This document shows, piece after piece, positions 26,048 through 26,325 of a stretch of DNA of 32,000 nucleotides (positions within the stretch are counted from its first letter, which is position 1; every line of letters begins with the position of its first letter). The notes under the pieces were generated by a model. It was not told the DNA's origin and ran no database searches. It was given only the letters and a program-made list of their open reading frames with translations. Origin of the DNA: Phycisphaera mikurensis NBRC 102666 (GTDB lineage: Bacteria; Planctomycetota; Phycisphaerae; Phycisphaerales; Phycisphaeraceae); assembly GCF_000284115.1 (NCBI RefSeq), contig NC_017080.1, positions 1,380,001 to 1,412,000 on the forward strand. Reading direction: 5' to 3'. The position numbers and the translations under genes were made by a program.

Positions 26048-26084
26048 GGGGGGGAGCGTAGAGCTCGGGGGGGCAAGGGACGGA

Positions 26085-26116
26085 GAGACGAAGAGACGAA
26101 GAGACGAAGAGACGAA
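26085..26116. repeat. Four perfect tandem 8-nt units GAGACGAA
   Basis: GAGACGAA x4, read directly from the sequence, followed by the degenerate GACAGACAG. Confidence 0.95.
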
Positions 26117-26149
26117 GACAGACAGGGCGTGGCGGCTGCGCCGACCACG

Positions 26150-26185
26150 CTCTCTCTCTCTCTCTCTCTCTCTCTCTCTCTCTCT
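26150..26185. repeat. (CT)18 dinucleotide microsatellite
   Basis: 36 uninterrupted nt of alternating C and T. Confidence 0.98.
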
Positions 26186-26325
26186 TGCCGTCTCCGTCTC
26201 TTCGTCTCTCACCCATCGCAGGCCCGACCCGCGGCGCCGAACGTCGCGGACGATGCAGCCGCAAGCGACAAGCGTCCCCCCCTGCGTCGCTTCGTCTCTC
26301 GCCCCCTCCCGTAGCTTGCCCCGCC

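Follow-up and report, generated by a model that had tools for sequence, protein, structure and literature searches.

The closest described systems are the repetitive extragenic palindromes and bacterial interspersed mosaic elements (REP/BIME), which are mobilised by RAYT transposases, and the miniature inverted-repeat transposable elements (MITEs), among which the Correia elements are able to provide promoters, terminators and RNase III sites. Roles in termination, mRNA stabilisation and supercoiling have been proposed for REPs, and one of their ends carries a conserved unpaired GTAG or CGTC tag (PMC3733652). In this study we analysed the 278 bp spacer at positions 26048-26325 of a 32 kb window of Phycisphaera mikurensis NBRC 102666, where the window is the whole stretch of DNA under analysis and coordinates refer to it unless another record is named. 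The spacer separates the start codons of a metallo-beta-lactamase (MBL)-fold gene and a divergent gene of 370 amino acids. It was found, with high confidence, to be a member of a dispersed palindromic repeat family that is kept as a hairpin. The family is intergenic, is probably undescribed, and is distinguished by tandem 8-mer arms, a strict purine-to-pyrimidine polarity and compensatory and partly concerted evolution.

The original prediction, which was made from this stretch, implied a locus-specific device, an idea that has to be given up as the spacer is one member of a dispersed family with a sister copy only 1.65 kb away. Its remark that the element was not recognised as a described repeat family agrees with our searches: no Rfam family matched (Rfam returned only sub-threshold matches to microRNA precursors, which reflect a generic long hairpin), and no description was found in the searchable literature, where on such repeats in Phycisphaera or Planctomycetes nothing turned up beyond the GTAG/CGTC REPs.

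Copies in Phycisphaera mikurensis and its relatives

A search for further copies, proposed along with the original prediction, returned four copies in 50 kb of P. mikurensis and more in its relatives. In these 50 kb, which comprise the window and its flanks, about 36 spacers measure 30 nt or more, and four of them hold the element. Apart from the spacer under study and the sister copy, the 32 kb window has no purine/pyrimidine hairpin, and this, together with folds that beat all shuffles (see below), bears out the claim that the element exceeds chance. In the sister copy the arms consist of (GAAGAAGC)n, the boundary is CTGACT, the (CT/GA) run is short, the apex is GC-rich and the termini are CAAGCG/CGCTTG; along the plus strand it reads as an 8-mer purine arm, a GC-rich centre, a short CT run and a pyrimidine arm (CTTCTTCG)n. 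Its RNA fold reaches -125.3 kcal/mol (z -3.6). A 31-nt promoter-proximal box next to its minus-strand ATG (24391-24421) is 77% identical to 26044-26074, the stretch to which the C-rich box of the spacer under study belongs (Table 1).

The third copy fills the convergent pheA/lpxR spacer from stop to stop (L096:17150-17371, which corresponds to window coordinates 37382-37603). The fourth lies between the stop of a ferredoxin gene and the start of a flavodoxin gene (L098:13013-13290), about 0.4-0.7 kb before the first base of the window; it includes an (AG)14 run, and its inner unit is compact (GCAAGCGAAGAAGTCAG-GC hairpin-CTGACTTTCTTTCTTCTTGGCTTCTTCGCTTGC). If the same density held throughout, the 3.8-Mb genome would carry a few hundred copies, a figure that is extrapolated and not counted.

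Two groups of uncultured relatives, L083 (MBL-fold protein 83% identical) and L084/L085 (72%), were found to keep the gene order of this region, in which the 370-aa gene is divergent from MBL-Pmp3-DUF3140-pdxA, and both carry the element at the two orthologous spacers, matching 26048-26325 and the sister-copy site. Further sites in the relatives are the mrp-alaS spacer, a spacer between flagellar rod genes, the convergent pdxA/UPF0102 spacer and the UPF0102/AAA_17 spacer, which gives a density of 3-4 copies per 13-19 kb, all of them intergenic. In a third lineage (L086-L095, MBL-fold protein 72% identical) no element was found at either orthologous site, and the divergent spacer there is 82 bp long with a short GC-rich hairpin only. 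Occupancy also differs at other sites, as the mrp-alaS spacer holds the element in L083 and a GTAG-tagged REP doublet in L084, and the pdxA/UPF0102 spacer holds it in L084 and lacks it in P. mikurensis.

Architecture and placement of the family

The copies follow one layout, in which a purine arm is separated from a pyrimidine arm by the boundary (A)GTCAG, an apical hairpin rich in GC and the boundary CTGAC(T), and each forms an imperfect hairpin of 100-200 nt. Both arms are built from slippage-prone tandem 8-mers, and in several copies the outer ends carry the terminal motifs CAAG(CG), before the purine arm, and (CG)CTTG, after the pyrimidine arm. The spacer under study conforms to this layout, with a variant of the inner boundary (AGACAGACAGG) and with (CT)18 inserted on the 3' side. 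Several copies contain a flanking mini-hairpin of the form NNNGC-GCA/TGC-GCNNN, the stem of which varies by copy yet stays paired. The GGC-TGC-GCC mini-hairpin in the apex of the spacer under study was found again in other copies, and the apex of L096:17150-17371 contains GTCGGCTGCGCCGAC. The purine arm precedes the pyrimidine arm at all 12 of the 12 sites, and since the element is a palindrome this order is the same on both strands.

The sequences of the arms differ between copies and between species, and their complementarity is kept in register. Three of the P. mikurensis copies use the 8-mer unit AAGAAGCG, and the copy under study uses AAGAGACG. The units of L083 are AAAGAGGG and AAGAGGGG, and those of L084/L085 are AAAGAGAG in two copies and ACAGAGGC in a composite copy of 400 nt. 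The sharing of purine 7-mers (Jaccard index) is 0.18 within genomes against 0.10 between orthologous sites, a moderate signal which suggests that the units may be homogenised within each genome, with the copy under study as an outlier. The two arms are often unequal in length because one side has extra units or a dinucleotide run, as with (CT)18 here, with (AG)14 in the L098 copy and with five additional GAGGGGAA units in L083.

Ten independent sites could be classified by their flanking genes. Seven are co-directional, two are convergent and filled stop-to-stop, and one is divergent; nine of the ten directly follow a stop codon. The copy under study lies between two start codons and not downstream of a gene 3' end.

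Conservation of the hairpin

Pairing was examined in an alignment of eight copies from which the two copies in the window were excluded, and the same eight copies were used to build a covariance model, R1. Of the cells in the paired columns, 89.4% were found to pair, compared with 53-64% when the partner columns were slid by 1-3; sliding is the proper control here because any purine tract pairs at about 60% with any pyrimidine tract. Double-sided changes were observed at 12 of the 31 pairs, as against 2-6 after sliding, and none of 500 shuffles reached the observed pairing values. The ungapped arms pair at 20-26 of 28 positions despite their species-specific sequences, and the fold z-scores range from -3.6 to -5.1 across the copies. 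As these changes are compensatory, it is the hairpin and not the arm sequence that is maintained. G.U and A.C mismatches are not consistently biased towards either strand, and neither strand folds better than the other.

Both copies of the window, which had no part in building the model, are recovered by it: the match to the sister copy spans 24443-24578 (47.6 bits, E 2.8e-9), and that to the copy under study spans 26081-26182 (40.6 bits, E 1.6e-7). Elsewhere in the window no match falls below E 0.1. The pheA/lpxR copy scores 56.5 bits. Across 1.26 Mb of control loci R1 matched three sites only, all of them Planctomycetota hairpins with tandem 7- or 8-mer arms: one in L075 with GAAAAAGC units, one in L013 with GGCACTG units directly upstream of the MBL ortholog of that genome, and one in L014 with TTGAGNG/CTCGTCT units around a GTCAG...CTGAC core. 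The architecture therefore extends beyond the genus.

Other searches define the range of the family. A composition scan and a regular-expression search of the 80 loci around more distant MBL orthologs (the same 1.26 Mb) found no such purine/pyrimidine hairpin, the metagenome pattern GCAAGCGRRGAAG..GTCAG..CTGACT gave zero matches, and no match to the element was found in the plasmid database. A looser metagenome pattern returned 120 loci, mostly chance matches, among which three are real purine-to-pyrimidine hairpins (L106, L112 and L144). These come from contigs of 59-63% GC, two of the three with several copies, and their 3' arms are T-richer and resemble ordinary A-tract/hairpin/U-tract terminators directly after stop codons. 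A stricter generic scan detected tandem-unit hairpins without purine/pyrimidine polarity in L009, L016 and L041.

Hairpins with complementary arms of tandem 7- or 8-mers were also seen in other Planctomycetota and in Acidobacteriota metagenome-assembled genomes, with unrelated units. The sites are L009:5418-5546, L016:3800-3921, L041:6883-6952, L013:9826-9981, L014:13550-13627 and L075:5687-5826, and the units are CCAATTA, GAGTTATT, TTGCCGA, GGCACTG, CTCGTCT and GAAAAAGC. They may represent a wider, undescribed class.

Features of the spacer between the divergent starts

The spacer has a GC content of 67%, against 72% for the window, and the coordinates of its parts are collected in Table 1. 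The repeats named in the original prediction were reproduced by direct reading and by Tandem Repeats Finder, which places the four exact 8-mers, (GAGACGAA)4 at 26085-26116, inside a period-8 array of 5.5 copies (26075-26118), and which likewise reports the uninterrupted (CT)18. Its 16-nt inverted repeat is also exact, 26195-26210 being the reverse complement of 26083-26098, and the degenerate third arm copy that it had placed at 26286-26300 proved to be somewhat longer, as 26282-26304 is an 87% copy of 26192-26214 and takes part in a 26-nt match that is 81% complementary to 26076-26101. The purity of the arms had been overstated: 26074-26127, described as almost pure purine, is 85% purine with one C per unit, and 26188-26210, described as pure pyrimidine, is 87% pyrimidine and contains three G.

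The core hairpin folds far better than expected from its composition, with -98.1 kcal/mol for the RNA of the minus strand (z -5.1) and -40.6 kcal/mol for the DNA (z -4.5), and none of 200 shuffles was better in either case. By these scores a long hairpin or cruciform is possible, as had been proposed. The description of the whole spacer as highly structured holds for this core; the right-hand third (26211-26325) is not significantly structured (z -1.4). The two start codons and the non-coding nature of the spacer agree with the public record, which has genes starting at 26047 (minus strand) and 26326 (plus strand) and no gene between them. A protein-coding spacer was considered and rejected, as the open reading frames that cross it are long spurious frames typical of a GC-rich genome.

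Table 1. Coordinates of the features of the spacer, the adjoining promoter boxes and the sister copy
Feature	Position	Strand	Description
Sister copy	24395-24615	-	Between the stop of the DUF3140 gene and the start of pdxA; layout and orientation as at 26048-26325
-10-like hexamer TACGCT	26055-26060	-	7 nt upstream of the ATG of the MBL-fold gene; probable leaderless promoter
C-rich box	26061-26074	-	Minus strand GCCCCCCCGAGCTC; between the pyrimidine arm and the -10
Purine arm	26075-26127	+	(AAGAGACG)5.5 including four exact GAGACGAA; ends in AGACAGACAGG, a variant of the family inner boundary AGTCAG
Apical hairpin, GC-rich	26128-26149		GCGTGGCGGC-TGC-GCCGACCACG; from the RNA and DNA folds
(CT)18 dinucleotide expansion	26150-26185	+	On the 3' side of the apex; pairs only partly with the purine arm
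Pyrimidine arm	26186-26210	+	TTGCCGTCTCCGTCTCTTCGTCTCTC; complementary to the purine arm over 20 nt at 95% and over 43 nt at 77%
GC-rich spacer segment	26211-26281		Two CAAGCG motifs (terminal motif of the family); not significantly structured
Second, degenerate pyrimidine-arm copy	26282-26304	+	CTGCGTCGCTTCGTCTCTCGCCC; just upstream of the plus-strand promoter
-10-like hexamer TAGCTT	26312-26317	+	8 nt upstream of the ATG (26326) of the 370-aa gene

Flanking genes and promoters

The minus-strand gene (ATG at 26047-26045) encodes an MBL-fold hydrolase of the Pfam family Lactamase_B_2, which is 100% identical to the P. mikurensis protein. The plus-strand gene had been labelled M48-like, a label that is unsupported since Pfam returns nothing for the 370-aa protein even with the threshold relaxed to E<=5. 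The exact 370-aa sequence has no entry in the protein collection examined. A perfect (GCCTCCCCC)5.3 array at 26329-26376 begins 3 nt after the ATG of this gene and encodes (ASP)5; it yields a 12-aa insertion that is specific to P. mikurensis, its orthologs being without these 12 residues, and may be an in-frame tract of variable length. A 40-aa open reading frame (27435-27557, plus strand), which shares 4 nt with the stop end of this gene, is called in P. mikurensis, L083, L084, L085 and L086 and looks like a conserved, coupled small protein.

Both genes are preceded by a -10-like hexamer (Table 1). The hexamer of the MBL-fold gene is kept as TAGGCT in L083 and L084, that of the 370-aa gene as TAACTT in L083 and TACGTT in L084, and pdxA, beside the sister copy, likewise carries a TAnnnT box. 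A TAnnnT box close to the start codon is the signature of leaderless mRNAs in Actinobacteria and Deinococcus. Among the 72 gene starts surveyed in P. mikurensis and its close relatives (those of the window and of L081/L083/L084/L096/L098), 29 have TAnnnT 6-10 nt upstream of the start codon, whereas each of the other 5-nt bins out to 95 nt upstream holds only 0-3. Since such a box lies 7-8 nt upstream of each ATG, both flanking genes are probably leaderless, judging from these motifs. With leaderless starts the element would lie upstream of both promoters, at about -15 to -250, and not in a 5' untranslated region. To judge from the TAnnnT counts, leaderless mRNAs appear to be very common in Phycisphaera.

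A riboswitch or leader in a 5' untranslated region was rejected in view of the -10-like boxes 7-8 nt from both ATGs. The CTTGCC at the arm end was considered as a -35 element and rejected, as its distance to the -10 ranges from 10 to 31 nt between copies. A scan for sigma-70 promoters and terminators returned nothing relevant.

Possible role and alternative explanations

The element is best interpreted as a palindromic repeat of the REP/MITE kind, which probably works in both directions as a transcript-end or insulator hairpin. Transcription from either side would produce the same RNA, consisting of a purine arm, a GC-rich hairpin and a pyrimidine arm, and this RNA would have the polarity of an A-tract/hairpin/U-tract bidirectional terminator. 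Hybrids of pyrimidine RNA with purine DNA are intrinsically weak, so a C/U-rich tail could replace the U-tract in a genome of 72% GC. Long duplexes are also typical RNase III substrates and 3'-end protectors. The element may thus be a hairpin at which transcripts are ended, insulated or processed, and from its place shortly upstream of leaderless promoters it would stop read-through transcripts that bury the start codon internally, in an untranslatable position, and that occlude the promoter. At the divergent locus it would lie outside both mRNAs, and it would at most insulate each promoter from the upstream transcription of the other, or would merely be tolerated. The polarity of a terminator is supported by the metagenomic relatives of lower GC content (59-63%), whose T-richer 3' arms follow stop codons.

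Several observations weigh against this reading. A role at the RNA level is something that we infer. The copy under study lies between divergent starts where no gene 3' end needs a terminator, and the fully formed stem is followed by GC-rich and not U-rich sequence. Selection at the RNA level and selection at the DNA level are not distinguishable, as wobble pairs show no strand bias and both strands fold equally. Of eight convergent spacers in the 50 kb only one contains the element, which is therefore not the general terminator of this genome, and the distribution of site types (one divergent in ten) is not significantly different from random placement among spacers. A terminator scan of 24200-26500 found no GC-rich hairpin with a U-tract of 7-9 nt directly behind it except at one unrelated site, the 3' arm of the element being a mixture of C and U. 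Mycobacterial RNA polymerase is reported to require a U-tract and not to stop at sites with a hairpin only (PMC3993855). In view of these points the terminator or insulator role, taken by itself, is put forward as tentative, at somewhat below an even chance, and the combined reading, in which a dispersed Phycisphaera palindromic repeat provides a transcript-end or insulator hairpin near leaderless promoters, is evenly balanced.

A less likely alternative is that the element is selfish or neutral palindromic DNA, similar to MITEs or REPs, which is spread or homogenised by a transposase or by recombination and survives in permissive spacers without serving the host, the complementarity of the arms being kept by template switching within the palindrome or by gene conversion and not by selection. 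The family is dispersed and several of its copies have GCAAGCG...CGCTTGC termini in common, its presence varies by species at the mrp-alaS and pdxA/UPF0102 spacers, its 8-mer units agree better among the copies of one genome than among orthologous sites, its arms are unequal with unpaired expansions, and its wobble pairs lack a strand bias, all of which is consistent with such DNA. However, a comparison of the flanks of five copies revealed no target-site duplication at any of them, and the surroundings of the copies yielded no related transposase; the IS630 insertion in L083 has ends unrelated to the element. Copies also persist at the same two sites across proteins that are 72-83% identical, which is long for neutral DNA in a compact genome, and the strict purine-then-pyrimidine polarity at 12 of 12 sites is not required of selfish DNA, although common descent could explain it.

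A broader version of the terminator and insulator proposal, which we consider improbable, is that the elements belong to an undescribed class of tandem-unit hairpins occurring sporadically across Planctomycetota, the units of which would be homogenised via a trans-acting factor (a protein or a recombination system) and which would act as bidirectional terminators or insulators independent of a U-tract, guarding leaderless promoters in very GC-rich genomes.

The arms could also be read as inverted arrays of 8-bp iterons, that is, as operators or binding sites for a cooperative DNA-binding protein, on the model of the heptad arrays bound by ribbon-helix-helix proteins and with a protein specificity that co-evolves with the unit in each species. 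The contiguous tandem 7/8-mers, both direct and inverted and next to promoters, are consistent with this, as are unit types that are species-specific and common to several loci, and similar tandem-unit inverted arrays in the unrelated loci L009, L016 and L041. Yet irregular positions outside the units are mirrored in register by the other arm, which a hairpin needs and a binding array does not; the complementarity runs through the non-repeated boundaries and the apex; and the element fills convergent stop-to-stop spacers, where there is no promoter to regulate. We regard this explanation as very improbable.

The original prediction itself was a switch, supercoiling-sensitive or phase-variable, based on a length-variable (CT)n or on H-DNA or a cruciform. 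The (CT)18 is a perfect 36-bp homopurine.homopyrimidine mirror repeat and so has the sequence of an H-DNA-forming tract; at this length, a mirror repeat can adopt H-DNA when the DNA is supercoiled. Its position between divergent promoters is one at which negative supercoils build up, long runs of a dinucleotide are subject to slippage, and the short-read contigs of the strain break within the arms. Slippage tracts that switch genes usually lie within a reading frame or between the -35 and the -10, whereas (CT)18 is in neither position, the distance from it to the two downstream -10-like boxes being 90 nt and 127 nt. Moreover, the tract is absent from orthologs that retain the same gene pair, where (CT/GA)3-6 occupies its site, and a similar (AG)14 occurs in the copy of the co-directional spacer between the ferredoxin stop and the flavodoxin start. 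Between L084 and L085, which are 99.5% identical, the number of arm repeats at the orthologous site is unchanged, and the only differences within their elements, an indel of 9 nt in an apical loop and a small group of clustered changes in one of the arms, lie elsewhere. Such a switch is highly unlikely, and a gene-switch role of the spacer is unsupported, the tract being poorly positioned for it.

In the light of the (CT/GA)3-6 of the orthologs and the (AG)14 of another copy, (CT)18 looks like a by-product of low-complexity arms. Together with the four perfect 8-mers and the in-frame (GCCTCCCCC)5, it looks like one of several slippage expansions specific to P. mikurensis and not like a designed part, as far as the sequences indicate.

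An assembly artefact of a low-complexity region may practically be discounted: Logan short-read contigs of the strain do end within both elements and the 9-mer array, but the NCBI assembly JACHEL010000003.1 is identical across both elements, a read exceeds every array in length, (CT)18 measuring 36 nt and the 8-mer array 44 nt, and independently assembled relatives have the same architecture at the same sites.

The identity with this contig (assembly GCA_014207395.1) extends over the 16.8 kb compared. Among the Logan contigs (SRR12223476), L082 ends at window 26108 and 24563, inside the two hairpin elements, and L097 starts inside the 9-mer array at about window 26347. Repeats of this kind fragment de Bruijn assemblies.

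If the combined reading of a dispersed repeat with a transcript-end or insulator hairpin is true, Phycisphaera would possess a repeat family at gene boundaries that may number a few hundred copies per genome, and this family could explain how a genome of 72% GC without obvious U-tract terminators, in which many mRNAs start at the ATG, ends or insulates its transcripts. It would also offer a natural system for compensatory evolution and for the homogenisation of palindromes within genomes. In practical terms, the elements break short-read assemblies and generate spurious open reading frames. The present evidence reveals no new regulatory switch; it provides a testable link to transcript boundaries in place of a demonstrated regulatory device.

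Other repeats in the region

Several other repeats were noted in the records analysed. GTAG-tagged REP-like palindromes (GTAGCCCGGCAACTNAGTTGCCGGGCTAC) occur as an inverted doublet at L084:2270-2385, where they occupy the mrp-alaS spacer, and at L083:12840-12960. A second recurrent palindrome, CCGCGGACCGT...ACGGTCCGCGG, was seen at or near gene ends in P. mikurensis and its relatives, namely at window 23283-23354, in L098 (records 28811-29052 and 32439-32710), at L083:12205-12260 and in the centre of L084:8390-8796, and is probably another repeat or terminator family. In L083 an IS630-family insertion with a 29-nt inverted repeat (L083:10075-11140) lies between the hairpin element and pdxA and parts pdxA from its usual promoter box. 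Finally, an inverted repeat at window 17657-17817, with 45-nt arms that are 76% complementary and that run into the adjacent gene, forms the upstream end of a very GC-rich convergent spacer of 385 bp, which has the most stable fold of the region (-0.66 kcal/mol per nt).

Comparison with known systems

The heptad operators of ribbon-helix-helix proteins (omega of pSM19035 and the ParG/ParR centromeres) resemble the element in their contiguous direct or inverted units of 7-8 bp near promoters. They differ from it in that the Phycisphaera arms are complementary in register even at irregular positions, and in that the element has copies in convergent spacers without promoters and many copies in the chromosome. 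Phase-variable microsatellites, such as the (TA)n between the -35 and the -10 of Haemophilus hif, share with it a long perfect dinucleotide run in a divergent regulatory spacer, whereas (CT)18 is outside both core promoters and any frame and is embedded in the arm of a repeat family.

With bidirectional intrinsic terminators the element has in common that both strands present a purine-rich 5' flank, a GC-rich hairpin and a pyrimidine-rich 3' flank, that most copies abut stop codons, and that the 3' arms of the relatives of lower GC content are T-rich. Unlike these terminators it has no U-tract, its 3' arm being a C/U mixture of 30-50 nt that forms base pairs with the 5' arm; at the locus under study it is located between divergent starts, where termination is a prediction only.

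MITEs (Neisseria Correia/CREE, ERIC, RUP and Nezha) are likewise non-coding repeats of 100-250 bp with long inverted arms, are found near gene starts and ends and form long RNA hairpins, and the terminal inverted repeats of MITEs have a counterpart in the GCAAGCG...CGCTTGC termini of several Phycisphaera copies. On the other hand, the flanks of the five copies compared have no target-site duplication and no cognate transposase was seen near the copies, the only transposase at these loci being the IS630 of L083. The arms are low-complexity tandem arrays that vary in the number and sequence of their units in place of a conserved terminal inverted repeat, and the copies are kept at orthologous sites across species.

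Like REP/BIME elements, the Phycisphaera repeats are extragenic, palindromic and species-specific in sequence, are dispersed in many copies (four in 50 kb of P. mikurensis) and are often found after stop codons or in convergent spacers. A REP unit, however, measures 20-40 bp, whereas the Phycisphaera hairpin is 100-200 nt long, with stem-loops of about 130-200 nt in the folds of the two window copies, has arms of tandem 8-mers and keeps a strict purine-then-pyrimidine polarity. No GTAG or CGTC tag was found at the ends of any copy, CGTC being present only inside the repeated unit TTCGTCTC. Since GTAG-tagged REP-like palindromes coexist with it in the relatives, the Phycisphaera hairpin is a family separate from the REPs.

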